Assembly: GCA_045123975.1 (NCBI GenBank) | Contig: JBGVKV010000063.1 | Coordinates: 15,070 to 79,069, forward strand | Direction: 5' to 3' | DNA length: 64,000 nucleotides | From: Eubacteriales bacterium | GTDB lineage: Bacteria; Bacillota; Clostridia; Oscillospirales; CAG-272 | Part shown: in pieces, positions 26,649-58,500 of the stretch | Position numbering within the stretch: the first letter of the stretch is position 1 | Layout of the letters: each line of letters opens with the position of its first letter | The notes under the pieces: model-generated | What the model was told of the DNA's origin: nothing | What the model saw: only the letters and a program-made list of their open reading frames with translations | Databases searched by the model: none | Translations under genes and position numbers: made by a program

Positions 26649-26677
26649 TTGACAAACAGGAGTAAAGTCAGTATAAT
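26649..26677 (+). promoter_or_regulatory. consensus sigma-A promoter (TTGACA-17-TATAAT) for rplJ-rplL
   Basis: ttgaca at 26649-26654 and tataat at 26672-26677, with a spacer of exactly 17 nt. Confidence 0.8.
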
Positions 26678-26683
26678 ACTTGT

Positions 26684-26839
26684 GTTGATCCAAAGACAGC
26701 AGGTTCCGGTAAAAGCGTTTGCTTTCCTGCCGAGGAGAGATTTAATATGTATATATTATGTCTTTTTTCGGTTTGCCGGAAAAAGACATTTTTTGTTGCC
26801 TGCGGTCCGTGAGCAAACTTTTACAAGGAGGAGATCCAA
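26684..26839 (+). ncRNA. ribosomal protein L10 leader (autoregulatory 5' UTR with terminator/attenuator hairpin at 26758-26795)
   Basis: A ~155-nt leader lies between the promoter and rplJ. It ends in the hairpin atgtcttttttcgg...ccggaaaaagacat followed by tttttt, about 45 nt before the rplJ ATG. This is the position and architecture of the Firmicute L10 leader. No covariance model was run. Confidence 0.6.
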
Positions 26840-27373
26840 ATGCCTAACGCAAAAGTACTGGAGCAGAAAAAACTCGCTGTTGAAACTCTCGCTGATAAGA
26901 TGGGTCGCGCTGCTTCCGGTGTTCTCGTAAAGTATGAGGGTATCACCGTTGAGGACGATACTAAGATGCGTGCAGCTCTTCGTAAGGCCGGTGTAGAATA
27001 CACCGTACTGAAGAACTCCATCATCGGCCGTGCATGCGACAATGCAGGTTTCACCGCTCTGAAGAGCGAGCTGACCGGCATGAACGCAGTAGCGATCAGT
27101 TTTGACGACCAGGTTGCACCCGCAAAGATCCTGAAGGAGTATGCGGATAAGATCGAGTCTTTCCAGCTTCGCGGCGGTTTCGTTGACGGTGAAGTTCTGG
27201 ACGCAGCCGGTGTAAACGAGCTGGCAACCATTCCGTCCAAGGACGTACTCGTCGGCAAGATTCTTGGAAGCATCCAGGGACCTCTGTACAGCCTGGCATT
27301 CGCCCTGCAGGCTATTATCGACAAGAACGGCGAAGGTGCTGCCGAAGAAGCAGCTCCCGCAGCAGAAGCGTAA
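26840..27373 (+). CDS. rplJ: 50S ribosomal protein L10
   Basis: MPNAKVLEQKKLAVETLADKM..., 177 aa. The RBS aaggagga lies upstream. Confidence 0.93.
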   Translation: MPNAKVLEQKKLAVETLADKMGRAASGVLVKYEGITVEDDTKMRAALRKAGVEYTVLKNSIIGRACDNAGFTALKSELTGMNAVAISFDDQVAPAKILKEYADKIESFQLRGGFVDGEVLDAAGVNELATIPSKDVLVGKILGSIQGPLYSLAFALQAIIDKNGEGAAEEAAPAAEA

Positions 27374-27423
27374 TTTCTGCATAATTAATTTTTGAAAAAC
27401 GACAAATTTGGAGGATAATGAAA

Positions 27424-27798
27424 ATGGCAAACGAAAAGTCCACTCAGATCATTGAGCAGATCAAAGCTCTCACTATTCTTGAACTGGCCGACCTCGTAAA
27501 GGCAATCGAAGAGGAATTCGGCGTATCCGCAGCTCCCGTAGCAGTAGCTGGCGCAGCAGTTGCAGCAGCTCCCGCAGCAGAGGAGAAGACCGAGTTCGAC
27601 GTAATCCTGAAGAACTTCGGCGGCAACAAGCTCGGCGTTATCAAGGCTGTTCGCGAGATCACCGGTCTCGGCCTGAAGGAAGCAAAAGAGCTGGTTGAAG
27701 GCGCTCCCAAGACCCTGAAGGAAGCTGTATCCAAGGCTGACGCTGAGGCTATCCAGAAGACCCTCACCGAGGCTGGCGCAGAAGTAGAAATCAAGTAA
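27424..27798 (+). CDS. rplL: 50S ribosomal protein L7/L12
   Basis: Contains an Ala-rich hinge and the C-terminal [28 protein letters not shown]. The second ATG was chosen for 8-nt spacing from ggagga. An alternative ATG is at 27418. Confidence 0.93.
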
Positions 27799-37289: not shown

Positions 37290-38057
37290 ATGGAAAGAAT
37301 CAAAAGCTTGAGTATCTATCAAAAAGGACTCCTTCTGTTTATGGCCGGCATAACACTGGTATTTACCGTGCTTTATCCGGTGACAATCGCAAGAGTTGGT
37401 TACAGATACAATGATGCCATTCTCGTTCCTTCACAAGAAAACGGAAATACACTGTATTCCGGAAAAATCAAAGGACAAAAGGCTTGTTTCAACGTATCGG
37501 ATGACACGGTTGTGTTTCGATACGGGGATAAAACCTATGGACCGTACACCGTGAAGGAGGATCCTTCTGCCGTTCCCGAAGATCACGTAATGAAAGGAAG
37601 TATGACCGGAATCGAAGTGCGGGAAGGGGAGAGTATTCTGTTCCGCGGCGGTGTCATGGATGCGGGGGATTTTTATCGGTTTTGGAGTGAAGACGGAACA
37701 GGGGATAATGTTCACGGAATCTTTTATGTAACCAGCGACGGAATCGCAAGGGACGGAAACGGCAATCCGGTGGATAGAATGAAGCCGTCAGTCTCTACTA
37801 TCTATGATTTGCTCCATGATCCCGAATTGACGCACAAAGGGAACGGGCTTGCCTGGTTAGGCGCTGTGTTTTTCTGTGTTCTTAACGCACTGTCCATTCT
37901 GTTTGCAGATGAGTTCTTCCGTTGGCATCTGATGTTTCGGATTCGTAATGTATGGGATGCAGAGCCGACGGATTGGGCAATTGCAGGCAGATATATCGGC
38001 TGGACTACTGTGACGGCAGCGATCACGGTTCTGTTTGCTGTGGGACTGTTATGCTGA
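37290..38057 (+). CDS. membrane protein, function unknown
   Basis: 255 aa. An N-terminal TM helix is followed by a soluble beta-rich middle and two C-terminal TM helices. The gene is visibly AT-richer than rarA. Confidence 0.55.
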   Translation: MERIKSLSIYQKGLLLFMAGITLVFTVLYPVTIARVGYRYNDAILVPSQENGNTLYSGKIKGQKACFNVSDDTVVFRYGDKTYGPYTVKEDPSAVPEDHVMKGSMTGIEVREGESILFRGGVMDAGDFYRFWSEDGTGDNVHGIFYVTSDGIARDGNGNPVDRMKPSVSTIYDLLHDPELTHKGNGLAWLGAVFFCVLNALSILFADEFFRWHLMFRIRNVWDAEPTDWAIAGRYIGWTTVTAAITVLFAVGLLC

Positions 38058-38089
38058 CAGAATAAGGATTTTATAAAGGAGGTTGCCTT

Positions 38090-38500
38090 GTGAAAAGGAG
38101 ATTGCTTTATTTGATACTACCGATCGTGACGCTTGTTTTGGAAATCCTGCCCTACGGAGCCGTATGCAATTTTGCCAATCCGGAGGGTGCCCCCTGGAGA
38201 AAGACCTTTTCTTATTTTGATTTGACTCCCTTCGGATATGCCAATTTCGCTCCGCTGATTACCGCTGTCATCACTTGTATCGTTTTTCTTTTGGCCGTTG
38301 TCTTTTGCATAACGGGCAATCCTACGTGGGCGCTTAGGGCGAGAAACATTCTTTACGTCGGTGCCGCCTTCTCTCTTTGTCCGCTGCTTCTCGGTGTCCA
38401 TTACTTTTCTGCCGTTGGCGCACTGATTACGGCATCTTTGATTGCCGAATTGCTTGTGATTCACCTCAGCATAAAACCGAATAAAAAAGCCATCGGATGA
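38090..38500 (+). CDS. small integral membrane protein (4 TM), function unknown
   Basis: 136 aa with a GTG start. It is hydrophobic throughout. Its 3' end is embedded in a terminator hairpin. Confidence 0.5.
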   Translation: MKRRLLYLILPIVTLVLEILPYGAVCNFANPEGAPWRKTFSYFDLTPFGYANFAPLITAVITCIVFLLAVVFCITGNPTWALRARNILYVGAAFSLCPLLLGVHYFSAVGALITASLIAELLVIHLSIKPNKKAIG

Positions 38501-38514
38501 TCCGATGGCTTTTT
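38488..38514. terminator. bidirectional rho-independent terminator
   Basis: aaaa-agccatcgga-tga-tccgatggct-tttt. The loop tga is the stop codon of the upstream gene. Confidence 0.8.
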
Positions 38515-38533
38515 GAGTTGGATAAATAATATA

Positions 38534-39067
38534 TTAGTAATTCTCTTTACGTACTTCGAAGAAGCTCTGGGGATGTACGCATACGGGGCATACGCCGGGA
38601 GCCTTCTTGCCGATTACCAGATGTCCGCAGTTGCGGCATTCCCACATGGTCTCCTCAGCCTTCTCGAATACCTTCTGCATCTCTACGTTGTTCAGAAGGG
38701 CGCGGTATCTTTCCTCGTGAGACTTCTCGATAGCGGCAACCATACGGAAACGGGCAGCGATAGCCTTGAAGCCCTCTTCCTCTGCTTCCTTAGCGAAGGT
38801 GTCGTACATATCGGTCCACTCGTAGTTCTCGCCCTCAGCGGCAGCCTTCAGGTTGGCAGCGGTGTCGCCCAGCTCGCCCAGTTCCTTGAACCACAGCTTT
38901 GCGTGCTCTTTTTCGTTGTTAGCGGTGGATTCGAAGATAGCGGCGATCTGCTCAAAGCCTTCTTTTCTTGCTACGGATGCGAAGTAGGTGTACTTATTTC
39001 TTGCCTGAGATTCGCCTGCAAAAGCGGTCTGAAGATTTTTTTCGGTCTTGCTTCCCTTGAGTTCCAT
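38534..39067 (-). CDS. rbr: rubrerythrin
   Basis: An N-terminal diiron four-helix bundle ([21 protein letters not shown]) is followed by a C-terminal rubredoxin-like CRNCGH...CPVC. Confidence 0.92.
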
Positions 39068-39098
39068 GTGTGTTTCTCCTTTAAGTAAAGTAATTATT

Positions 39099-39473
39099 TT
39101 ATTTATTTGCTGCCGCTTGACGGCATTTTGAACATTGATAGTGAAGAGTCAGATCATACGATGTAATGTCCTTGTCTGCGTGATCCTGAAGGAAGGTATC
39201 GATTCCCTCGATGCGGATGTCCCGGATCTTACCGCAAGTGGAGCATACCATATGATCGTGGGGAACGAACATCTTGTCGTACCGATCGGGCTGATCCGCA
39301 AAGGTAAGACGGACGATGTGTCCCGACTCGCTGAGATATTTCAGACTGTTGTACACGGTAGCGAGTGCAATGGTGGGCATCTGCTCACGGGCGGCCAGGT
39401 ATATTTCCTCGGCGCTCAGATGGGCTTCGCTTCCGCGGACAATGGATAAAATCAGTTCGCGCTGCTTTGTCAT
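39099..39473 (-). CDS. Fur-family transcriptional repressor, PerR-like
   Basis: 124 aa from the ATG at 39473. The DNA-binding helix is [10 protein letters not shown], the metal site is [11 protein letters not shown], and there is a C-terminal CSKC. It is probably co-transcribed with rubrerythrin 31 nt downstream. Confidence 0.8.
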
Positions 39474-39485
39474 CACGCACTCCTT

Positions 39486-39500
39486 TTGGAATGATTCTAA
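39486..39500 (-). promoter_or_regulatory. Fur/PerR-type 7-1-7 operator (box 2, over the transcription start region)
   Basis: The minus strand reads TTAGAATCATTCCAA, with one mismatch from perfect dyad symmetry. It lies 4 nt downstream of the -10 hexamer. Confidence 0.55.
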
Positions 39501-39504
39501 ATAT

Positions 39505-39533
39505 ATTATACACAGCACCATGGCGCTTGTCAA
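39505..39533 (-). promoter_or_regulatory. sigma-A promoter of the perR-like/rbr operon (TTGACA-17-TATAAT, TGTG extended -10)
   Basis: The minus strand reads ttgaca-agcgccatggtgctgtg-tataat. Confidence 0.7.
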
Positions 39534-39539
39534 TAGTTT

Positions 39540-39554
39540 TTAGAATAATTCTAA
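39540..39554 (-). promoter_or_regulatory. Fur/PerR-type 7-1-7 operator (box 1, just upstream of -35)
   Basis: TTAGAAT-A-ATTCTAA is a perfect 7-1-7 inverted repeat, located 6 nt upstream of the -35 hexamer. Confidence 0.6.
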
Positions 39555-39718
39555 AAAATTTTTTAAGAAGCTATCCGGAGGGAGTTTCATAATCCGGGCA
39601 CTGTCCCGCAATTTTTCCGCCGGGATTCTTGCAATGCGATAGCGGATGTGATATAATCTTCATATATTGTGCCCTTGGGCAGGATTTGATGCGGATTCTC
39701 CGCAGGGAAGAGGTTAGT

Positions 39719-41344
39719 ATGGCTGAAATGATCGACGTGTCGGATATCAGTCTGTTGTATCCGGACGGGGAAAGTATGCGCCGTGCCGGTCTGGGAGAGG
39801 GCGGTGGGCGCCTCAGCGACGTGACGGCGGAGCAGCTGGAACTGTATTATCTGATCGATTTGAAGAGCAGCGATATTGGTAGCTTTTTCACCTGCGACGT
39901 GGAAACGATCCGCTACCGACAAAAAACCTTTGCCGACATGGCAGAGAATCCGGAGCTTTCAAGAGTCCTCTTGAAAATGCTGCCTTTGCTTAATGATATC
40001 ACCGAATTGCGCCGTATGGGCGAAGGGAACGGAGATTCCACCGAGTCCTATCTGTACAGCATCACGGAAGTGGAATTGTACACTTCCTTGATGGAGCATC
40101 TGAAAAACGGTCTTTTGCCCATTGCGGATACATTCAAAAGTCCTGCGTTCCGCCGCTTTGCGGATCGGATCCGCCATCTGACGGAGAGTGAGTATTACAG
40201 AGAGCTGAACGAAAAGCTGAATGAGCTGACCAAGCGTGTGCGGGAGATCAAGAGCATCACCGTGGGCGTAAATCTGGATTCCCAGCTTCGCCCCGAGCAC
40301 GCCGGCGTGCTTTCCATCAATAATGAATATTTCAAGTCCGGCGAGATTTTGGATAAGATTCTCCGCCTGGATTTCAAAAACGATGAGATGACCTGTATTG
40401 CGTCTCTGGTGCCCTTCCGTCGGAATCAGAGCGAGAATCAGCAGATGGCATTGTCCTTTGCATTCAATTCCGCCATCAACGAGGTGTTCAAGACCTCCAT
40501 CCGCTCCTGGCGGAAGGTGGTGCAGATGTACGTGCTGGAAAACACGGATTTCCTCATTCGTATGATGCCGGAGATCGAGTTCGTCGTGAAGGCGGCGGAA
40601 TTGATGGCGCGCCTCAAGGCGCAGGGATGCACTCTCTGCTGTCCTGAGATCCGTCCCATGGAGGAAAAGCAATTTACCGCCCGCAGCCTGCAGAATCCTG
40701 TTGTGGCCTTGAAGATCGGCGGGGAAACGGTTCCCAACGACTTCTCCTTTGATGAGGACGGCATGATCTTCGTAATCACCGGCCCTAACCGAGGCGGCAA
40801 GTCTGTGACCACCTGTGCCGTGGGTCTGGCATTCGTGATGGCCCAGCTGGGCCTGTACGTCTGCGCCGAGAGCGCAGTCATCAGCCCCTGCGACTGCATC
40901 TATACCCATTTCCCCACGGGATCCGAGGATACCATCGACAAGGGACGTCTTGGCGAGGAGTGCGCCCGTCTGAACAGCATCTTTGAAACCCTGACGGAAT
41001 ACGGTCTGGTACTGCTGGACGAATCCCTTTCCTCCACCGGCTCCTACGAGGCATCCTACATTGCCGGCGAGGTGCTCCAGGGCTTCTCCATGGCCCGCTG
41101 CCGCTGTATATTCTCCACCCATCTTCACGATCTGGCCGCATCCGTGGATCGGATCAACGGTGAGTGTGTACCCCGCGGCGGCGTGAAGATCGACAATATG
41201 GTGGCCGCCATCAACGAGGGCGAGCGATCCTTCAAGGTCCGGCGAGCCCGCCCCGACGGAAAGAGCTACGCCCGGGACATCGCCGAGAAGTACGGCTTGT
41301 CCTTCGACAAGATCCTGTCCCGTATTGAAGAAAACCGGAAATAA
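39719..41344 (+). CDS. MutS-related ATPase (MutS domain III/V only; no mismatch-binding or Smr domain)
   Basis: 541 aa. Walker A is ITGPNRGGKSV, Walker B is LVLLDESLSSTG, and the STH motif is FSTHLHDL. The start is at the ATG at 39719, downstream of a TTGCAA-16-TATAAT promoter (39629-39656). Confidence 0.8.
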   Translation: MAEMIDVSDISLLYPDGESMRRAGLGEGGGRLSDVTAEQLELYYLIDLKSSDIGSFFTCDVETIRYRQKTFADMAENPELSRVLLKMLPLLNDITELRRMGEGNGDSTESYLYSITEVELYTSLMEHLKNGLLPIADTFKSPAFRRFADRIRHLTESEYYRELNEKLNELTKRVREIKSITVGVNLDSQLRPEHAGVLSINNEYFKSGEILDKILRLDFKNDEMTCIASLVPFRRNQSENQQMALSFAFNSAINEVFKTSIRSWRKVVQMYVLENTDFLIRMMPEIEFVVKAAELMARLKAQGCTLCCPEIRPMEEKQFTARSLQNPVVALKIGGETVPNDFSFDEDGMIFVITGPNRGGKSVTTCAVGLAFVMAQLGLYVCAESAVISPCDCIYTHFPTGSEDTIDKGRLGEECARLNSIFETLTEYGLVLLDESLSSTGSYEASYIAGEVLQGFSMARCRCIFSTHLHDLAASVDRINGECVPRGGVKIDNMVAAINEGERSFKVRRARPDGKSYARDIAEKYGLSFDKILSRIEENRK

Positions 41345-48650: not shown

Positions 48651-50240
48651 TTAGTCCTCTACGCTTCCGTATTCTTCCAGTGTCAGGCCTTCGTTGTGCT
48701 CCAGGGTGTAGTTGATGTGCCACTGGGTGGGGAAGAGCAGATAATTTCCGTCGCGGAAATCCTGTACCCACTTTACCTCGTACAGCTTCAGATCGGCGGG
48801 GTTTACGCCCTCCGGCACCCGCTTGATGAACTGATAGGGCTGCGGATATTTCCGGTAATCCACGTTGTATTCGTTCTTCATACGGGATTCCAGAACGTCC
48901 AGCTGCAATTCGCCGACCACGCCCACGTATACCCGCTCCAGACCGGAGCCGGGCTCGCAGAAGATACGGATCGCGCCCTCCTGGGCGATCTGGTTCATAC
49001 CCTTGGCAAACTGCTTACGCTTCATGGAGTCGATCTGCTCTACCTCCACGAAGATTTCCGGCGCGAAGGTGGGGATTCCCTCGAATTCTACCCGCATGGA
49101 GCGGTCGCATACCGTGTCGCCGATGGAGAAAATGCCCGGATCGAATACGCCGATGATGTCGCCGGCATACGCCTCGTCGATAATGGATCTCTCCTGCGCC
49201 ATCATCTGCTGGGGCTGGGACAGCTTCAGCTCCCGTCCGCCCTGGACGTGATAATAGGTCTCACCCCGCTCAAAGCGGCCGGAGCAGATACGCATGAAAG
49301 CAATGCGGTCCCGGTGGGCCTTGTTCATGTTGGCCTGGATCTTGAATACGAAGGCGGAGAACTTATCGTCGGAGGGATATACCACTTCCCCTGCGGTTTT
49401 GCGGGGCAGGGGGGCTGTGGTCATGCGGAGGAAGCATTCCAGAAACGTCTCAATACCAAAGTTGTTGAGCGCAGAGCCGAAGAATACGGGGGACAGCTTA
49501 CCGTGGCGTACCGCCTCCAGATCGAAATCCACACCGGCGCCGTCCAGAAGCTCTACCTGCTCTACCAACTCAGCCCGCTCTTCCTCGCCGATCAGCTGAT
49601 CCAGCTTGTCCGTGTCGGTGATATCGCAGTCGATGGAGGAAAGGCGCTCGCGGCCGCGGTGGGCGTCCGCATAGGAGATGATCTTTTTCTGTTCCCGGTG
49701 GTATACGCCCTTGAAGCGCAGACCGCAACCGATGGGCCATGTGATGGGATAGGTGGCGATGCCGAACTCGGTTTCCAACTCGTCCAGAAGATCAAAGGGA
49801 TCTCTTGCTTCCCGGTCCATCTTGTTGATGAAGGTGAAGATCGGGATGTCCCGCATAGCGCAGACCTTGAACAGTTTTCTCGTCTGGGGCTCAATACCCT
49901 TGGCCGCGTCGATGACCATAACGGCGCTGTCCGCCGCCATCAGGGTACGGTAGGTATCCTCGGAGAAGTCCTGATGTCCGGGGGTATCCAGAATGTTGAT
50001 GCAATAGCCGTCGTATTCGAACTGCATAACGGAGGAGGTGATGGAAATACCGCGCTTTTTCTCGATTTCCATCCAGTCGGATACGGCGTGGCGGTCGGAG
50101 GCCTTGCCCTTTACGGAGCCGGCGGACTGGATCGCACCGCCGTACAGAAGAAATTTCTCCGTCAGGGTGGTTTTACCTGCGTCGGGATGGGAGATGATGG
50201 CAAAGGTCCTGCGCCGATTGATCTGCTCTTGATTTGTCAT
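48651..50240 (-). CDS. prfC: peptide chain release factor 3
   Basis: The GTPase motifs are ISHPDAGKTT, DTPGHQDF and NKMD. Length is 529 aa. Confidence 0.93.
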   Translation of the reverse strand: MTNQEQINRRRTFAIISHPDAGKTTLTEKFLLYGGAIQSAGSVKGKASDRHAVSDWMEIEKKRGISITSSVMQFEYDGYCINILDTPGHQDFSEDTYRTLMAADSAVMVIDAAKGIEPQTRKLFKVCAMRDIPIFTFINKMDREARDPFDLLDELETEFGIATYPITWPIGCGLRFKGVYHREQKKIISYADAHRGRERLSSIDCDITDTDKLDQLIGEEERAELVEQVELLDGAGVDFDLEAVRHGKLSPVFFGSALNNFGIETFLECFLRMTTAPLPRKTAGEVVYPSDDKFSAFVFKIQANMNKAHRDRIAFMRICSGRFERGETYYHVQGGRELKLSQPQQMMAQERSIIDEAYAGDIIGVFDPGIFSIGDTVCDRSMRVEFEGIPTFAPEIFVEVEQIDSMKRKQFAKGMNQIAQEGAIRIFCEPGSGLERVYVGVVGELQLDVLESRMKNEYNVDYRKYPQPYQFIKRVPEGVNPADLKLYEVKWVQDFRDGNYLLFPTQWHINYTLEHNEGLTLEEYGSVED

Positions 50241-50436
50241 AATCCTGTCTCCAAAAATAACGAATATATCACTTTGGGGGGCATCCCCCGTTCATTAACT
50301 TGTGGAAAATTCCATACCTTATTATTCTATCACATTCTGTTTCTTTTTACAAGGGGGAAATTCGGGGGCGGCGGTATTGAATTTGGTCTGTGCGGATGGT
50401 ATAATGTATACATACAATCATTCCCGGAGGTGCGTG

Positions 50437-50619
50437 ATGGGAAACTACGTGGTATACTGCGGCATTATGTGCATAATCGGCGTATTGTGCCTGGGGGCCG
50501 GATTTATGCTCCGCGAAAGACTGAACCCCAAGGTGGCGGCCATTCTGATCGTCATCGGCCTGGCACTGTCCATGATCTTTATGAACACATTGCTTATTGC
50601 ACAGCTGCAGAATATGTGA
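50437..50619 (+). CDS. small membrane protein (2 TM), hypothetical
   Basis: 60 aa from the ATG with RBS ggaggtg 6 nt upstream. A tggtataat -10 lies about 35 nt upstream. The longer ORF-track start lacks both. Confidence 0.4.
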   Translation: MGNYVVYCGIMCIIGVLCLGAGFMLRERLNPKVAAILIVIGLALSMIFMNTLLIAQLQNM

Positions 50620-50686
50620 GATAATAAAAAGCAGCCCGCTTGGGCTGGTTCTCATAAGGCTGTTTGATTTATCCCTGCAGGGACCG

Positions 50687-50704
50687 GCGTCCCCGACGGT
50701 CCGT
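50687..50704 (+). repeat. left arm of 16/18 inverted repeat bracketing the AT-rich XRE cassette
   Basis: gcgtccccgacggtccgt. The reverse complement of 51713-51730 is gcgtccttgacggtccgt. Confidence 0.5.
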
Positions 50705-50736
50705 CAAGGCATAATTGCGCCGAAGTAAACAAACAG

Positions 50737-50775
50737 AAAACCCCGACAGATTTTTGTCTGTCGGGGATGTTTTTA
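50737..50775. terminator. bidirectional rho-independent terminator
   Basis: aaaa-ccccgacaga-tttttg-tctgtcgggg-atgttttt. Confidence 0.85.
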
Positions 50776-50800
50776 TTCTGTTCGATAAACTGCAATTTGG

Positions 50801-51565
50801 TTATCTTTTTTTATATATTACAAGCTCGGGATTCTCTCCGTTTTCCTCATAAGTACATACAAGTAAAAAGTCCATATTGCCGGCAATACCAAAGCAACGG
50901 TTGCTGCCGAATTCGCATTCAAGCTGATTCCCAAGATAGGTGGCATCGTCATCAAGAAGTTTCACTTTTTGTCCGTTAGGAAGCGAGTATTCCATATTGA
51001 TATAACCACCTATAAGGAAATGGAGCGTTTTGACTTCGGGCATTCCTTCAATATGTAAATCGTTAAATTCTTGGATCATTTGCTCTTTGAATTTTGTGAG
51101 ATTCTCCTCGCCTCCAAGCTCCGCGTAGCGTTTCCAATAATTGAGCTTTGGAAGATGCTCGTCAAAATAAGCTCTTGCCTGATCGGCAGGCCAATTCTCA
51201 TTTGACATATGATCCACCAGGAAATCGGTCAGTTCTTCAAGACTTGTATAGCAGAATTTTCCGTCTGCGTAACACCACTTGCAATATTCCTCGTTGAAAA
51301 ATCCGTCGGGTTCTTTGCTGATATTACCGTCTTCAAGGGGCATACCGCAGCATTGACAAATCAGATTTTGAGGTGAGCCGAGAAGCGTATTGATCGAAAC
51401 GTCAAACTCCTTTGACAGAAGTTTCAGCGTTTCTGTATTCGGGGTTGTTTCTCCGTTCTCCCAACGGGAAACGGCCTGTCTTGTCACATACATTCTTTCC
51501 GCAAGCTCCTCCTGCGAAAGCCCTTTTTTCAATCTGAGTTCACGGATGATATCTTTTGTTTCCAT
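50801..51565 (-). CDS. XRE-family HTH transcriptional regulator with zinc-ribbon and uncharacterised C-terminal domain
   Basis: The HTH_3 region is LRLKKGLSQEELAERMYVTRQAVSRWENGETTP. The zinc ribbon is CQCCGMPL...CKWC. Length is 254 aa. The gene is AT-rich relative to its flanks. Confidence 0.8.
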   Translation of the reverse strand: METKDIIRELRLKKGLSQEELAERMYVTRQAVSRWENGETTPNTETLKLLSKEFDVSINTLLGSPQNLICQCCGMPLEDGNISKEPDGFFNEEYCKWCYADGKFCYTSLEELTDFLVDHMSNENWPADQARAYFDEHLPKLNYWKRYAELGGEENLTKFKEQMIQEFNDLHIEGMPEVKTLHFLIGGYINMEYSLPNGQKVKLLDDDATYLGNQLECEFGSNRCFGIAGNMDFLLVCTYEENGENPELVIYKKR

Positions 51566-51595
51566 AACATTGCTCCTCTGTAAGTTTGTGATTAT

Positions 51596-51623
51596 ATTAT
51601 ACCACGTCTATACAGGTTGACAA
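51596..51623 (-). promoter_or_regulatory. sigma-A promoter of the XRE gene (TTGTCA-16-TATAAT, TGg extended -10)
   Basis: The minus strand reads ttgtca-acctgtatagacgtgg-tataat. Confidence 0.6.
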
Positions 51624-51664
51624 GAAACTCTCTGTTGCTCTTTGTTAATCCTGTTATGCCACAA

Positions 51665-51700
51665 ACAACAAATCGGCAGAGAAAACAAGTTCTCTGCCGA
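51665..51700 (-). terminator. rho-independent terminator of the beta-helix lipoprotein gene
   Basis: The minus strand reads cggcagagaa-cttgtt-ttctctgccg-atttgttgttt. Confidence 0.7.
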
Positions 51701-51712
51701 AATTTATGTGTC

Positions 51713-51730
51713 ACGGACCGTCAAGGACGC
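51713..51730 (+). repeat. right arm of 16/18 inverted repeat bracketing the AT-rich XRE cassette
   Basis: acggaccgtcaaggacgc, which is the reverse complement of gcgtccttgacggtccgt. Confidence 0.5.
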
Positions 51731-51784
51731 TGCCCCTACATTTGCAGGCTTCCTTGCAAGAAGGGGGCCACAGGGGCTGCTTTA

Positions 51785-53617
51785 TTACCAGCCGCCGCCG
51801 GGGTGCGGTCTTCCGCCACCCGGTCCGCCCGGGCCGCCGCCCATACCGCCGAATCCGCCGCGGACACCATAGATGATAGACGTCATCTCGATTTCCGCCA
51901 GGGTTTTCTCGGGCGTCACGGGAATGCTCTGAGCAAAGCCGAAATCATCGGTTTCCTCTACCGTACAGGTGACGAGGGCGTACGTTTCCCCTTCCAGAAT
52001 GCCGGGGGCACTGATTACCACATTGTTGAATGTCTTGGGGGAGGTGAACGCAACGATGGCTGTGCCGCTCTCATCGCAAAGGGCGATGGTGGTACCGGCG
52101 GGTTGTGCCGTCGTATTGGTCATAAGAGCACCTTGGGTGGCCTCGCTGACGTTCTGGGCCATGCCGGCCGCACCGCAGACTACCAGCACACCGCCGGTGA
52201 CGGAGCATTTGCTGTCGTAGTCCAGCGCACCGTTTCCGTTGTTGGTGGGACCGCTGATCAGGGTGATACCGCCGGAGATTTCAATAGTGCCGTTGGCATC
52301 AATGCCGTCACCCGAGGCGTTGACGAACAGATATCCGCCGAGGATCTCGATTTTCGCCGTGGAGGTGGAGAAGGGATTTCCGCCGGGGCGTCCGTTCCAG
52401 GAGGAATCGCCGTCGTTTCCGCCGGCAGCGTTGATGCCGTCGTCGGATGCCACAACGGAGATGACGCCGCCGGTGATGCGGATATCGGTGGCTTCCAGTC
52501 CCTCGTAGCTTTTCGCAATATCGAGGATGCTGCCGGAGATCTCCAGCATCGCATCGGCGTGAATAGCGTCGTCCCCGGTTTTGACGGAAAGCGCACCGCC
52601 GTGGAGATACACGTTCCCGCCGGCGTGGATGGCATCATCTGCGGAATCCAGTACGAGGGTGCCGCCGCTTACGAGGATATCCCCGTCGCACTTCAGTCCC
52701 TTGGCGCTGGAGGAGTTTGAGGATAACTTCCGGCCGCTGCCGCCGCCGGTTTTGATCGTAAGAGTACCGCCGTCCACCTTCAGGCCAGTGATAGCCTCGA
52801 AGCCGTCGTTGCCCGCTTCAACGGATATATTGCCGCCGCTGATCCAGATGTAACCCAGTGCGGAATCCTTATCGTTGGTGGCGCGGAGGCCGTTTTTCTT
52901 TGCGTTTACGGTGAGTGTGCCGCCCGCGATCTTCACGCAGTCCTTGCCGTCTATACCGGTAGAAGCGGCATTCACGGTGATGATGCCGCCGGCGATCACC
53001 AGATCATCCTTGGACACGATGCCGTGCTTATAATTTCCGTTGACCTGCAAAGTGCCGCTTCCGTTGATCGTGAGATCTTCCTTGGAGAAGATGGCGGCAT
53101 CCACAGACGAATCGGAGGAGGCGCTGGCGTCGGAGAGGGCGTTGATCGATCCTTCCGCTAACGTGAGGAATGCCTTATCCGCCTGCTGAATATGGAGCGG
53201 TGCACCGCTTTTTGCACTCAGCATCAGTCCGTTCAGTACCAGCTGTATCTTGTGATCTTTGGGGGCGTTGACCACGATAGCGCCGTTCTTGCATTCGCCT
53301 GCCAGCACATAGGTGCCCTCGGCGGTGATCGTGACGGTAGTGCCGCTCGCCTGAATGCCCTCACCGGTGACGGTGGCGCCGTTGTCCGTGAAGGCGGCTG
53401 TGCCCGACACGGTTTCATAGGAGGGATCCATGTCCCGGGAGGACAGGGAATACTCCAGCACCGGCGCGGTGGAGATGCCTGTTTCCGGAGTGGTTTCGAC
53501 ACGGGGAGGCAGGATCACGGGCGGTGTGGTTTCCGCCGGAGGGGTATCGGGAGTGCATCCCGCCACAGACAAAAGCAGTGCCGTCAGGCAGGACAGCACG
53601 CAAATAGTGCGTTTCAT
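51785..53617 (-). CDS. secreted lipoprotein with parallel beta-helix repeats (Cthe_2159-like carbohydrate-binding family)
   Basis: The start at 53617 gives the lipoprotein signal MKRTICVLSCLTALLLSVAGC. Recurrent motifs GDDAIHA, SDDGINA and GDGIDANG are spaced about 22-25 aa apart. The C-terminal tail is Gly/Pro-rich: GGFGGMGGGPGGPGGGRPHPGGGW. Confidence 0.7.
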   Translation of the reverse strand: MKRTICVLSCLTALLLSVAGCTPDTPPAETTPPVILPPRVETTPETGISTAPVLEYSLSSRDMDPSYETVSGTAAFTDNGATVTGEGIQASGTTVTITAEGTYVLAGECKNGAIVVNAPKDHKIQLVLNGLMLSAKSGAPLHIQQADKAFLTLAEGSINALSDASASSDSSVDAAIFSKEDLTINGSGTLQVNGNYKHGIVSKDDLVIAGGIITVNAASTGIDGKDCVKIAGGTLTVNAKKNGLRATNDKDSALGYIWISGGNISVEAGNDGFEAITGLKVDGGTLTIKTGGGSGRKLSSNSSSAKGLKCDGDILVSGGTLVLDSADDAIHAGGNVYLHGGALSVKTGDDAIHADAMLEISGSILDIAKSYEGLEATDIRITGGVISVVASDDGINAAGGNDGDSSWNGRPGGNPFSTSTAKIEILGGYLFVNASGDGIDANGTIEISGGITLISGPTNNGNGALDYDSKCSVTGGVLVVCGAAGMAQNVSEATQGALMTNTTAQPAGTTIALCDESGTAIVAFTSPKTFNNVVISAPGILEGETYALVTCTVEETDDFGFAQSIPVTPEKTLAEIEMTSIIYGVRGGFGGMGGGPGGPGGGRPHPGGGW

Positions 53618-54384: not shown

Positions 54385-54429
54385 ATTGTAAATTTATGTG
54401 GAATTTGCGACTTTGTTGCAATTTATCCA

Positions 54430-54457
54430 TTGACATATTGAAATCCTTTGCTATACT
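54430..54457 (+). promoter_or_regulatory. sigma-A promoter (TTGACA-16-TATACT) of the SLH protein gene
   Basis: ttgaca at 54430-54435 and tatact at 54452-54457. An AT-rich leader of about 85 nt follows. Confidence 0.6.
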
Positions 54458-54543
54458 ATTAGTTAGAGATTTTATGCAGTTGTATTATGATTTCTTATGC
54501 AATTGCAAAATGTTTCCAATCAATCTTTATATGGAGAATGAGT

Positions 54544-57500
54544 ATGAAGAAACTTTTATCCGCAATTCTCACGATTTGCCTGGTTCTGTCCTGTGCGGCA
54601 CCGGCACTCGCTGCCTCCTTCCCCGATCTGGAGGCTCGCCATGCCTGGGCGGTTCCCGCTATCGATTATATGATGAGCAAGGGCATCGTTAACGGCTATG
54701 AGGACGACACTTTCCGTCCCGACCGTACCGTTACCCGTGTTGAGTTCATCAAGATGCTCAATATGACCTTCGGTCTGACGGCTACTGCCGCCATTCCCTA
54801 TACCGACGTACCCGCGGATCAGTGGTACGCTCCTTACGTAAAGCAGGCCGTTGCGCAGGGATATCTTTTGAACTACGGTTCTCTCCTCAATCCCAACGGT
54901 GCTCTGAGCCGTCAGGAAGCGGCTGCACTTCTGGTTCGCTATCTGAATCCGGATGAGAGCCTGAAAGCGTCCTCTACCACCTTTACGGACTATTCCTCCG
55001 TTAAGGCGGCTTACCGTGACTACGTGCTGCTGGCTGCCGGTATCGGTCTGATCAACGGCTACGAGGATGATACCTTCAAGCCCGATAAGACGCTGAACCG
55101 TGCCGAGGCACTGACCATTCTGTACCGCGCTGCCGGTATGATCTGCAACGATAACGTGGTAGAGACCGAAGCAGGTGCCGGTGACAAGAATGCCGTTATT
55201 ATCAAGAACAACATCACCGTGACCGGTGCGTATCTGCCGGGCCGTGTGATCATTACCGAGGGTGTCAGCGGCGGTACCGTTACTCTCAGCGAGTGCCAGA
55301 TCGGCGAGTTGATCGTTCGCGGAACTCCCACCGTGATCCTCTCCGGATGTACTGTGGACTCCCTGATCGTGGATTGCTCCAGCAAGGGCAAGACCGCTCC
55401 CCTCTCTCTGCTGGCCGGCACCGTTGTGAAGGATATGACCCTTCGCACGCCTGCGGACATCAGCACCGCATCCCGTACTACCCTGACCAAGCTGACCGTA
55501 GAATCGGGCGCATCCCGTTCCACCCTCGGCGGCAACGGTACCTTCACCAATGCAGTGATCAACGCAAGCGGATTCGTTTCCGATAAGATGCCTACCAACT
55601 ATACTCTGGGCCTCGGCATCAGCGCAACCTTTGCTGGCTCCGTATATACCTCCAGCTCCACTCCTTCCGCCAGCGACACCGGCTTTACTGCCCAGCCCAG
55701 TCTGTATACGTCTTCTTCCTATACGTATCTGACGCTGACGGCTGCCAAGGCCGGTACGGTACATTATTACTACACCAATAGCGCTACAATTCCTACGGCA
55801 GAGCTGTTTGATAACTATTATGCCGTGGCTGCCGTGCGTTCCAACTTTATGGTTTCCGCCAACCGCTCTCTGGATACTCAGATCGGCTCCACCGCCGCTG
55901 TGGGAAGCTACTCTCACGTGGTTGTGAAGTTTACGGATACCCTGGGCGTTGACTACCAGCCCGTCGTTCTCAGCAACCAGTCCTCCAGCGGATTTACCGT
56001 AGCACCTACCGTATCCACCAACGGCAGCTATCAGTATCTGTCCTTTACGCCTGCCATTGACGGTACGCTGTACTACTTCTACACCAACAGTTCCACTCCT
56101 CTGACCGCCTCTTCCTTTGCATCGGCTCTTACCTCCGGTACGGCTATGCATAGGGGTGATATCGACGTGACCACGGGTAAGGCTGTGAGCACCGCGCTTG
56201 CCGTTGCCTCCACCGTAAGCAATTACGCCTACGTGGCTGTGATGCTGGAAGACAATATGGCCAAGACGTACCAGCCCGTGCTGATCCCCACCGGCGGTAC
56301 CGGTGTAAACTCTGCTACCGGATTTACCGATAGCCCTTACTGCAACACCCTGAACAACGGTGTGGCTCTCGGATTTACGCCTACCTATTCCGGTGTGGTT
56401 GAGTATTACTTCACCACCGGCTCTACAGTACCTACCACGTCCGAATTTGAGTACTATAAGTCCATCTCCCAGGTAACTCTCACCGGTTCTGTGCAGGTTA
56501 CCGCCGGTACGGCAAGCTACTCTCCTCTTTTGAATACGGTGAATCCCACTATGTATCCGTATATCGTTATCCGCCTGAAATCCACCAGCGGTACCGCATA
56601 TACTCCCGTAGTGATCCGTATTAGCACAACCTCCGGCAGCGGTTCCACTACCCCCGGTACCTCCGGCAGCGGCTTTGTTACTATGCCTACCGTTACCTAC
56701 GCAGCCGGTAAGCTCGTTCTGAACTTCCAGGCAAGCATGAGCGGCACCGTATACTATTATCTGACTACCAGCCCCAATTCCCCCGGCTCCGCCTTCATGG
56801 GTAACTACAATTCTTCCACCAGCACAATGGTTTCCACCAAGCTGGGCGGAATTTTCACCGCAACCGGTATGGCACAGTCTCAGCAGACCGTCCTTTCCAC
56901 CGGCCTCAGTGAAGATTACAATTATATGGCAATTATGCTTCAGTCCGGCAATACCGCGTACACCCCCGTGGTAGTACCCGTACCGGACGTGGAAGCCGTT
57001 GTGATTCAGGATACCGGCTTCGTTGTCGGACCGATCTACAATGAATACACAGCATCCAGACATCAGATCGAGTTTGCCACCAGTGTAAAGGGTACCGTAT
57101 GGTACTACTTCACTGATTCTGCCGATGTTCCTACGACCAAAGCAGTTATCGAGACGGTTCTCTATGGCGGCGACAACATTTATGATCGCGGCAGACAGCC
57201 GGCCAATAAGATGACCTCCACGCTGATGCCCTTGAGCGTCGACGGAAATCTCCCCGGATACGTGGTAATGATGTTGGTGGACGAGAATGATAATCATTAC
57301 AAGCCCATCGTTCTTACTACCAGCGGTATGTACGGTGCGTCTTCCGTTACCAGCGGCTTCGTTGAGAGAGATAATGCACTTTCCGTTACCGTGAACGGAA
57401 CAACTCCCATTTTGAACTACACCTGCACGGAAACCGGTAAGCTGTATTACTTCTTTACCAACAATGCGTCTTCCATCAATACGATGTGGGACTTCTTCAT

Positions 57501-58392
57501 GGATGGCTTCGGCCGCGGATATCTGGCCACCTCTTCGGACGGTGTAAGAGGCACGATCGACCTCTCCGTCGGTAAGGGCAGTGTAGCGCTTCCCGTAAGC
57601 AAGTCCATCTCCTCCTATACGCACGTTGTCATCATGCTGCAGAACAGCGCATATGCGCCCGGTGGATACCGCAAGCCCCTTGTTATCGCATTGAACGCAA
57701 CTGGCAGCAGCGGTACCTCCTCCGGCTACAGCGGTTTCTCTACCTCTCCGTATCTGTCCGGTACCAGCGTATACTTCACGCCCAAAACCACCGGTACCGT
57801 TTATTACGGCTTTACTCAGACCAATGATACCTCTGCACTGTATGCGAACTGGGGTCTGGGAAGCCTCGGTGCTCTTGGCGGCACCATCGGTACGGCAAAC
57901 GTCTCCGCTTACCTGGCATCCTCCAACTATGGCGGCAGCATGCCCATCTCCTGGGCGGGCTACACCCAGTCCATTGCGATTCCTTCTACCAACCTTATAA
58001 ACTATAAGTATATGGCAATCTGGACCGTGGACACCTCCGACACTATGTCGAAGATTGAATTCGTTCCGCTGAGCAATACCTCCATCGGCGGCACGACCAC
58101 ATCCGGTACCGGATTCCTGGTGGCTCCTTCTTATAATTCGTACACCCGTCAGCTTTCCTTCACTCCTTCTGCAGCGGGTACGGTAGCGTACGTGTGCTCC
58201 GATTCCACCAGCATCACTACCTACGAACAGTTTGTGACCGCATTCAACAATGCTACCGTCAGAAACACGATGACCGTCAGTGCCCTGCAGCCCACCACGA
58301 TGACCGTTAGCGCATCCCTGAACAAGTACGTGTGGGTAATGCTGATCACTGTAGACGGCAACTACACTCCCGTTCGTATTCAGTTGTACTGA
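54544..58392 (+). CDS. large cell-surface protein: signal peptide, three SLH domains, beta-helix-like spacer, eight tandem uncharacterised modules
   Basis: The signal peptide is MKKLLSAILTICLVLSCAAPALA. SLH motifs are FPDL...GIVNGYEDDTFRPD, YTDV...WYAPYV and FTDY...GLINGYEDDTFKPD. Total length is 1282 aa from the ATG at 54544. Confidence 0.9.
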   Translation: MKKLLSAILTICLVLSCAAPALAASFPDLEARHAWAVPAIDYMMSKGIVNGYEDDTFRPDRTVTRVEFIKMLNMTFGLTATAAIPYTDVPADQWYAPYVKQAVAQGYLLNYGSLLNPNGALSRQEAAALLVRYLNPDESLKASSTTFTDYSSVKAAYRDYVLLAAGIGLINGYEDDTFKPDKTLNRAEALTILYRAAGMICNDNVVETEAGAGDKNAVIIKNNITVTGAYLPGRVIITEGVSGGTVTLSECQIGELIVRGTPTVILSGCTVDSLIVDCSSKGKTAPLSLLAGTVVKDMTLRTPADISTASRTTLTKLTVESGASRSTLGGNGTFTNAVINASGFVSDKMPTNYTLGLGISATFAGSVYTSSSTPSASDTGFTAQPSLYTSSSYTYLTLTAAKAGTVHYYYTNSATIPTAELFDNYYAVAAVRSNFMVSANRSLDTQIGSTAAVGSYSHVVVKFTDTLGVDYQPVVLSNQSSSGFTVAPTVSTNGSYQYLSFTPAIDGTLYYFYTNSSTPLTASSFASALTSGTAMHRGDIDVTTGKAVSTALAVASTVSNYAYVAVMLEDNMAKTYQPVLIPTGGTGVNSATGFTDSPYCNTLNNGVALGFTPTYSGVVEYYFTTGSTVPTTSEFEYYKSISQVTLTGSVQVTAGTASYSPLLNTVNPTMYPYIVIRLKSTSGTAYTPVVIRISTTSGSGSTTPGTSGSGFVTMPTVTYAAGKLVLNFQASMSGTVYYYLTTSPNSPGSAFMGNYNSSTSTMVSTKLGGIFTATGMAQSQQTVLSTGLSEDYNYMAIMLQSGNTAYTPVVVPVPDVEAVVIQDTGFVVGPIYNEYTASRHQIEFATSVKGTVWYYFTDSADVPTTKAVIETVLYGGDNIYDRGRQPANKMTSTLMPLSVDGNLPGYVVMMLVDENDNHYKPIVLTTSGMYGASSVTSGFVERDNALSVTVNGTTPILNYTCTETGKLYYFFTNNASSINTMWDFFMDGFGRGYLATSSDGVRGTIDLSVGKGSVALPVSKSISSYTHVVIMLQNSAYAPGGYRKPLVIALNATGSSGTSSGYSGFSTSPYLSGTSVYFTPKTTGTVYYGFTQTNDTSALYANWGLGSLGALGGTIGTANVSAYLASSNYGGSMPISWAGYTQSIAIPSTNLINYKYMAIWTVDTSDTMSKIEFVPLSNTSIGGTTTSGTGFLVAPSYNSYTRQLSFTPSAAGTVAYVCSDSTSITTYEQFVTAFNNATVRNTMTVSALQPTTMTVSASLNKYVWVMLITVDGNYTPVRIQLY
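55681..58389 (+). repeat. eight divergent tandem protein-coding modules (93-126 aa each) inside the SLH protein gene
   Basis: Modules begin at nt 55681, 55990, 56320, 56671, 57016, 57355, 57733 and 58111. Each opens with GF(T/V/S/L) and carries a GT(V/L)xYY(Y/F)T-like strand and a terminal Y-x-P-(V/I)-V motif. Confidence 0.8.
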
Positions 58393-58403
58393 TAAGATCT
58401 ATA

Positions 58404-58435
58404 AAAACGGCTGCCTTCGGGCAGCCGTTTTGTTT
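58404..58435 (+). terminator. rho-independent terminator
   Basis: aaaa-acggctgcc-ttcg-ggcagccgt-tttgttt. Confidence 0.85.
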
Positions 58436-58460
58436 ATGCTTGTTTTGTTTATCACAAACA

Positions 58461-58500
58461 AAAAGGGCTGTCGCATCGAAATGCAACAGCCCCTTTTTTT
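58461..58500 (-). terminator. terminator hairpin for the minus-strand phosphoesterase gene
   Basis: aaaa-gggctgtcgcat-cgaa-atgcaacagccc-cttttttt, with one mismatch in the stem. Confidence 0.6.

Follow-up and report, generated by a model that had tools for sequence, protein, structure and literature searches.

Introduction

Several described surface-layer (S-layer) systems offer points of comparison for the gene reported here. Sap of Bacillus anthracis carries a signal peptide, surface-layer homology (SLH) motifs and six Ig-like domains with short linkers, an arrangement described as 'equivalent in EA1, SbsB, SbsC' (PMC11665858). SlpA of Clostridioides difficile occurs as S-layer cassette types (SLCTs), in which a conserved wall-binding part is joined to divergent exposed cassettes that recombine (PMC8881574; bioRxiv 10.1101/2025.04.02.646754). 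The same combination of conserved anchor, variable surface and recombination has been described for other S-layer proteins (bioRxiv 10.1101/2025.04.02.646754). S-layer genes also possess efficient promoters and stabilising structures in the 5' untranslated region (UTR) (PMC3666127). We analysed a 64,000-nucleotide stretch (64 kb, hereafter the window) of contig JBGVKV010000063.1 from a Eubacteriales bacterium (assembly GCA_045123975.1), focusing on one gene at 54544-58392 on the forward strand, which encodes an SLH-anchored surface protein with eight tandem modules. Its exposed modules behave in evolution as a block of exchangeable alleles, whereas the anchor, promoter and mRNA leader are almost frozen.

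Most of the abundant gut Clostridia are uncultured, which has kept their envelope from being described. For one such clade, known from 53 species-level genomes that derive from human, ruminant and other animal guts, the gene is a concrete candidate for encoding the outermost protein. Both SLH-anchored multi-Ig surface proteins and allele switching of S-layers are already established, and this locus extends these concepts and overturns nothing. What is new here is a passenger domain that deserves a family entry, together with the mosaic pattern of allele exchange. A near-invariant anchor and expression signal fused to a block that is replaced between strains and related species would be expected of a target of phages or of host immunity, and the contrast between the two parts could be exploited for strain typing and for the prediction of phage-host pairs.

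Results

The open reading frame (ORF) spans 54487-58392 on the forward strand. Within it, the ATG at 54544, preceded by a GGAG ribosome-binding site (54533-54536), is the biologically sensible start and defines a coding sequence (54544-58392) of 1282 aa plus stop. From this start, the N-terminus reads MKKLLSAILTICLVLSCAAPALA followed by ASFPD. Residues 1-23 (54544-54612) form a putative Sec signal peptide with predicted cleavage after ALA; the AxA cleavage site is kept in orthologs and the Cys of 'LSC' is not. The mature protein would have a mass of ~133 kDa and a pI of 5.1, with 25% Ser+Thr and 6.8% Tyr.

The predicted cell-wall anchor consists of three SLH motifs (aa 24-199, 54613-55140). 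Pfam SLH (PF00395) matched the full protein in three stretches (E 7.6e-32; 109.5 bits, cutoff 20.8), and no Pfam family besides SLH was found in the full protein at E<=1. In published SLH structures, TRAE-type motifs contact pyruvylated secondary cell-wall polymer (SCWP); here the three SLH motifs carry TRVE, SRQE and NRAE at the expected places. Among solved SLH structures, that of Sap is the closest (E 3e-18), and the SpaA SLH domain is also homologous. The anchor is followed by a 180-aa neck (aa 200-379, 55141-55680), modelled by AlphaFold as an all-beta, solenoid-like region of ~17 short regular strands with a predicted local distance difference test score (pLDDT) of ~90. The neck has no family assignment: it gave no Pfam match, and a fold search of the PDB returned no solved beta-helix or solenoid. 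The C-terminal 903 aa are fully taken up by the eight modules, so that the protein ends with module 8, and neither Pfam nor the module profile revealed a distinct tip, adhesive or ligand-binding domain distal to them. A preliminary description of the locus had proposed a signal peptide, three SLH motifs, a spacer and eight modules, and this layout is correct to the codon. Its 'beta-helix-like' spacer agrees with the all-beta prediction, while the word 'giant' overstates a protein of 1282 aa (133 kDa mature).

We compared the parts of the gene separately between related genomes. Against the conspecific contig L057, the flanks are 98-100% identical in DNA and module 5 only 81-84%. Synonymous (dS) and nonsynonymous (dN) divergence, estimated by the Nei-Gojobori method, gave a dS of 0.02-0.045 for the flanks, 0.014 for the SLH region, 0.20 for the modules overall and 0.64 for module 5. 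Because dS rises together with dN, the divergence points to the import or persistence of old alleles, not just to fast amino-acid change. Segment-wise dN/dS lay between 0.2 and 0.4 and exceeded 1 nowhere, and gene-wide positive selection is thus not shown. The same gradient appears in protein identity to three homologs: 100% in the SLH region, 97% in the neck and 78% in module 5 (P0003); 96%, 94%, 58% and 60% in the SLH region, neck, module 5 and module 6 (P0005); and 97% in the SLH region, 95% in the neck, 71% in module 1 and 41-59% in modules 2-8 (P0006).

In the sister lineage L056, the proportions of synonymous (pS) and nonsynonymous (pN) differences from the window are 0.34 and 0.053 in the flanks and 0.20 and 0.018 in the anchor, compared with 0.65 and 0.319 in the modules. 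The L056 module block is closer to that of L001 (pN 0.126) than to the window (pN 0.319), whereas its flanks and anchor are closer to the window, the L001 flanks being more distant (pN 0.112). Nearest-neighbour tables show this incongruence segment by segment. The switch falls at the border between neck and module 1, at ~55700 (55650-55750 in the window, 3900-4200 in L056), an apparent recombination breakpoint: upstream of it the nearest relative of L056 is the window, and downstream L001 and L058. The disagreement between the phylogenies of the module block and the flanks indicates allele or cassette exchange. Overall, conservation of the anchor, promoter and leader exceeds that of the flanking genes, and the module block is far more diverged; segment identity, the DNA identity profile, pS/pN and incongruence all show the conserved anchor and variable exposed region of cassette-type variation. 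Silent cassettes and a diversity-generating retroelement were rejected as the source, because no second copy of a module or SLH domain exists within the 64-kb window, which argues against a local cassette store, and because dS rises too, which argues against mutagenic retrohoming.

This pattern resembles the C. difficile SLCTs in its constant wall anchor (pN 0.018), variable exposed part (pN 0.319) and exchange of alleles between backgrounds. The two systems differ in their anchors (SLH here, CWB2 in SlpA) and are unrelated in fold, and the protein described here lacks the H/L cleavage architecture. The variation here also extends over an eight-domain block and occurs module by module between conspecific strains, and the lineages between which alleles are exchanged share only ~80-85% identity in their flanking DNA.

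The eight modules lie end to end on the forward strand: module 1 (aa 380-482, 55681-55989), module 2 (aa 483-592, 55990-56319), which was the one modelled, module 3 (aa 593-709, 56320-56670), which includes a Ser/Thr/Gly linker, module 4 (aa 710-824, 56671-57015), module 5 (aa 825-937, 57016-57354), the most divergent segment between conspecific strains by DNA identity, module 6 (aa 938-1063, 57355-57732), module 7 (aa 1064-1189, 57733-58110), the most aberrant, with a Gly-rich insertion in its central segment, and module 8 (aa 1190-1282, 58111-58389), which has the conserved end ...YTPVRIQLY. A profile built from the eight modules re-found starts at aa 380, 483, 593, 710, 825, 938, 1064 and 1190, which correspond to the boundaries first proposed. 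In an alignment of all eight, the modules are 19-34% identical to module 1, and they are joined by Ser/Thr/Gly linkers of 10-16 residues. BLASTP alone detected 8 of the 28 module pairs as significant, with module 2 as the hub, and module 7 was detected by the profile only. The repeat is not compositional, as the real sequence scored 588 bits and 200 composition-matched shuffles scored -20 bits or less.

The motif skeleton proposed for the modules is real and recurs in the consensus of 112 non-redundant homolog modules, GF...P....L.FTP...GTVYYYYTN...PT..F...Y...G...VtAG...Y.YVVvML.d.G..YqPVVi. It had also been suggested that variability is concentrated in one segment per module. This holds as a gradient and not as a sharp hypervariable loop: profile positions 41-78, which take in the helix and both middle strands with the adjoining loops, are more variable and receive the insertions, with differences between mid-range orthologs of 0.58 there versus 0.42 elsewhere.

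The AlphaFold model of module 2, built with the 112-module alignment, predicts seven strands and one helix (pLDDT 91.3; predicted template-modelling score 0.82). The helix occupies residues 40-48, between the third and fourth strands (C and C'), and the final 7-10 residues form a disordered linker. Of the conserved anchors within a module, GF..P opens strand 1 in this model, and L.FTP, GTVYYYYTN, Y.YVVvML and YqPVVi lie on strands 2, 3, 6 and 7. Searches for a known family returned nothing that recurs. The eight modules had no Pfam match at E<=10, and no family recurred among the 112 homolog modules at E<=1, with neither an FN3 nor a Big model among the results. NCBIfam returned only an SLH-driven 'exception' model far under its cutoff. 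Profile searches of PDB sequences gave nothing significant; Geopilin domain 2 (E 0.08) was dismissed as compositional. Foldseek against the PDB likewise found no match at E<=1e-3, the top one being the Ig-like domain of DUF3823 (E 5.7e-3, TM 0.53), with weaker resemblance to carbohydrate-binding module (CBM)-like and glycosidase accessory sandwiches (E 0.06-0.2, TM 0.42-0.54). Among viral models, where Foldseek again gave no match at E<=1e-3, FN3-type domains led (TM 0.45-0.59).

The module is thus predicted to be an uncatalogued domain of the FN3/Ig-like fold class, in line with the earlier suggestion of an undescribed beta-sandwich family; no known repeat family was found in the Pfam, NCBIfam and PDB profile searches. 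It shares with FN3 and bacterial Ig-like (Big_x) domains of the E-set class a predicted seven-strand sandwich of ~100 aa that occurs in tandem on surface proteins, and FN3/Ig-like folds are its best fold matches (TM 0.45-0.59). It differs from them by the helix between strands C and C' and by its own motif set (GF..P, GTxYYYxT, YxYVxxML and YxPVxx). Membership in FN3 itself was rejected, since an hhalign comparison with the tenth FN3 domain of fibronectin (10Fn3) was not significant (probability 0.3%). One distant profile match (P0108) overlaps a weak Pfam fn3 signal. This compact family, absent from Pfam, NCBIfam and PDB, could now be catalogued.

A single-sequence search retrieved 22 homologs at 28-92% identity, all of them with SLH motifs and none with a record name beyond 'hypothetical protein'; the 90% clusters comprise 5-34 members. 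An exhaustive profile search of 1.84 billion protein cluster representatives recovered only 107 clusters with the module, of which 68 reached E<=1e-30; a word-index search with the eight-module profile gave two fragments only, so that the single-sequence and exhaustive searches were needed. Most of the 107 clusters are SLH proteins with 5-13 modules from uncultured gut and rumen Clostridia. A few are dockerin-bearing secreted proteins with one module each (P0109, 285 aa; P0113, 690 aa), and from their sequences the domain appears to be used outside SLH proteins as well, in cellulosome-type contexts. Some clusters are Bacteroidota cargo proteins of the type IX secretion system (T9SS; P0072 and P0099). 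In P0072 (4988 aa), residues ~130-1500 hold at least 10 near-identical tandem copies (profile E 7e-47), which Pfam fails to recognise too. This suggests that the family extends beyond Clostridia and that, outside them, it occurs as a homogenised recent array.

In a survey of GTDB with one genome per species, 53 loci encode a relative, and all carriers are uncultured metagenome-assembled genomes (MAGs). They are labelled Clostridia, Eubacteriales, Oscillospiraceae or 'Ruminococcus' and come from human faeces, rumen and animal guts; carrier samples include ERZ27297552, ERZ28594716 and ERZ28614440. Complete genes hold five (9 genomes), six (21), seven (3), eight (15), nine (2) or 13 modules (1); in L033, one ORF scored two modules and a second module-bearing ORF lies directly 3' of it. 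Eight modules are constant in the 15 species-level genomes of this clade, with 5-13 in the wider family. In every eight-module ortholog, each module best matches the window module at the same position, down to ~35% identity, and the own-position match often scores two-fold in bits over the second-best module. Because module i pairs with module i across species, the array is older than the species that carry it, and every position is a distinct entity. Together with the 19-34% identity between modules, this bears out the proposal of an old array and not a recent duplication.

The expression signals are nearly invariant. A sigma-70-type promoter (54430-54457, forward strand) has a -35 element TTGACA at 54430-35, a 16-nt spacer and a TG-extended -10 element TATACT at 54452-57, and matches the consensus at 11 of 12 positions. 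L056, L001, L058 and L003 have an identical promoter, and orthologs with no more than 36-38% amino-acid identity still retain TTGACA-N17-TATACT. From the inferred start site, the 5' leader is AT-rich and ~80 nt long (54464-54543). An 11-bp hairpin is predicted at 54475-54507, and the 83-nt leader fold has a dG of -19.5 kcal/mol and a z of -2.46. Its stem is kept by one-sided changes (GU-to-GC, UG-to-UA), and the loop varies. The 160 nt upstream of the start codon (54385-54543) are 97-100% identical across lineages, versus 75-85% for flanking coding DNA. No Rfam family matches the leader; the hairpin is probably an mRNA-stabilising or regulatory element. An intrinsic terminator with a 12-bp stem (seven GC pairs) and a T run follows at 58404-58431, and the gene is monocistronic. 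The strong promoter and terminator noted earlier were confirmed, as was the AT-rich leader, which is 'long' only in a relative sense. As with Lactobacillus slpA-type signals, a consensus promoter is combined with a 5'-proximal hairpin, where those genes have a strong promoter and a stabilising 5' UTR (PMC3666127). However, there is no sequence relationship between them, and only one promoter is seen here.

Discussion

We consider the chances about even that this gene encodes the principal SLH-anchored S-layer subunit of an uncultured gut and rumen Clostridia lineage (Oscillospiraceae in NCBI naming). An S-layer subunit is favoured because the Sap/EA1/SbsB-like plan is combined with the expression signals and with an SlpA-like pattern of conserved anchor and variable cassette. 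That the protein forms a lattice, is abundant and binds the SCWP is inferred, as are the agents that would select for its variation. The protein would be exported by Sec, and its three SLH motifs would form a pseudo-trimer that binds the SCWP non-covalently. The all-beta neck would hold the remaining protein off the wall, and the eight non-identical FN3/Ig-like modules would serve as the outward assembly region, 'beads on a string' each with its own identity and position. The consensus promoter and the conserved 5' hairpin leader would provide high and stable expression. Divergent module alleles may be maintained because the block faces phages, antibodies and neighbours. Recombination, both close to the neck/module-1 junction and inside the block, would exchange these alleles, with the anchor held constant to fit the cell wall.

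Comparison with Sap and EA1 of B. anthracis and SbsB and SbsC of Geobacillus supports a shared plan, in which a signal peptide and three SLH motifs precede several distinct beta-sandwich domains in a row (PMC11665858), encoded by a monocistronic, strongly promoted gene. The protein described here has eight modules instead of the six in Sap, all eight from one domain family, and it has an additional 180-aa all-beta neck between SLH and modules. The positional distinctness of its modules matches S-layer assembly domains and differs from homogenised adhesin stalks.

Several observations weigh against an S-layer subunit. In neither sequence nor close structure does the module region resemble the assembly domains of Sap, EA1 or SbsB. 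With phmmer, Sap aligns to query residues 2-311, which comprise SLH and the start of the neck and not the modules, and the best 50 Foldseek matches of module 2 include no chain of Sap, EA1 or SbsB. The linkers of 10-16 Ser/Thr/Gly residues exceed those of Sap (3-7) in length, and a flexible fibril could have such linkers too. The mature protein has 7 Cys, which is atypical of classic S-layer proteins. Codon bias is only moderate, with an effective number of codons of 42 and a codon adaptation index of 0.52 versus 0.36-0.61 in other window genes, where rplJ and rplL were the only reference genes in the window. Pyruvyl-transferase and SCWP genes (csaB, tagA-type) are absent from the 25 Pfam families listed for the 64-kb window, a result that is uninformative genome-wide. 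SLH-bearing Firmicutes average ~12 SLH proteins each (bioRxiv 10.1101/2025.04.02.646754), and an SLH anchor alone is therefore no mark of a lattice subunit. Finally, all carriers are uncultured MAGs.

Some of these points lead to an alternative that we regard as somewhat unlikely, in which the SLH-anchored protein forms fibrils and no lattice, as an adhesin, a spacer or a 'stalk', and its modules make up a flexible rod for attachment to plant fibre, mucus or cells or for the display of variable epitopes. Tandem Ig/FN3-like domains with 10-16-residue Ser/Thr/Gly linkers suit a flexible rod, and the eight modules are tandem repeats of one domain family, as in a stalk. The varying module number (5-13) over the wider family is in keeping with this, as are the dockerin proteins (P0109, P0113) and T9SS cargo (P0072, P0099) that carry the module, contexts typical of accessory binding or spacer domains; moreover, a genome can encode many SLH proteins that do not build the lattice (bioRxiv 10.1101/2025.04.02.646754). 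Other observations count against a fibril. There is no tip or ligand-binding domain, since module 8 ends the protein. The repeats are 19-34% identical and each position is separately conserved, unlike typical stalk repeats. The extreme conservation of promoter and leader, and the single conserved core-genome locus in all 53 species found, also argue against it. The description of the protein as 'S-layer-associated adhesin-like' is accordingly not specifically supported, given the absence of a tip or ligand-binding domain and repeats that are position-conserved, not homogenised; an S-layer subunit itself fits the evidence at least as well.

A polysaccharide-binding or cellulosome-like scaffold, whose modules bind carbohydrate or dock proteins in functional linkage with the neighbouring Cthe_2159-family lipoprotein, is improbable: synteny with that lipoprotein gene at every locus examined, the module in dockerin proteins and the weak Foldseek likeness to CBM-like and glycosidase accessory sandwiches (E 0.06-0.2, TM 0.42-0.54) speak for it, but these matches lack significance and would be expected of the fold in general, Pfam detects no CBM, cohesin or dockerin family in this protein, the Cthe_2159 gene is transcribed divergently, and a conserved binding site is hard to reconcile with alleles that turn over rapidly across the entire block.

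Beyond the S-layer subunit assignment, we tentatively advance a broader possibility: that the module founds a new FN3-like family that builds the S-layer of the whole uncultured gut and rumen Oscillospiraceae clade, its block acting as a serotype-like cassette whose deeply divergent allele classes endure, recombine at the neck/module junction and pass between species while anchor, promoter and leader stay frozen. If this is true, the locus would be the main determinant of phage host range and IgA recognition in these commensals and a strain-typing marker in metagenomes.

Additional features of the window

The order of the locus is Cthe_2159 lipoprotein, UDG, SLH gene and metallophosphoesterase, and it is syntenic in related contigs; one such SLH gene sits at this conserved core-genome locus in all 53 species found. 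The window is otherwise housekeeping core chromosome, including RF3, GatA/B, HPr kinase, SpoIIP, LuxS, homoserine dehydrogenase and L7/L12. The Cthe_2159-family gene (51785-53500, reverse strand; Pfam E 2.7e-91) encodes a predicted carbohydrate-binding beta-helix protein, which begins with a signal of the lipoprotein type (…LSVAGC) and has a C-terminal tail rich in Gly and Pro. The gene is transcribed divergently and accompanies the SLH gene in every related contig examined.

Small differences between genomes surround the SLH gene. A regulator gene with HTH_3 and Zn_ribbon_2 domains (50801-51565, reverse strand) lies in a low-GC stretch at 50001-52000 (GC 0.475) and is also present in L057. 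L001 has a 60-aa ORF and an ASCH-domain gene at the regulator position, indicating a small variable insertion beside the surface-protein locus. Between the SLH and metallophosphoesterase genes, L001 (10017-10562) and L058 (5223-5765) have an extra ORF of ~180 aa without a Pfam family, whereas the window has two back-to-back terminators only, at 58404-58431 (forward strand) and 58460-58497 (reverse strand).

A stop-free antisense ORF of 1022 aa (54556-57624, reverse strand) overlaps the SLH gene, in a region with a strongly negative GC skew (-0.07 to -0.15). The most plausible explanation is that it arises from the Thr/Ser/Ala/Val/Gly-rich codon usage of the SLH gene and is not itself a gene. 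Elsewhere in the window, Rfam identifies an L10 ribosomal protein leader (RF00557, 57.5 bits) at 26672-26803 on the forward strand, 5' of rplJ (26840-27373) and rplL (27418-27798). A second low-GC stretch (GC 0.485, AT skew -0.16) lies at 38001-40000; apart from this and 50001-52000, GC content ranges from 0.51 to 0.62.

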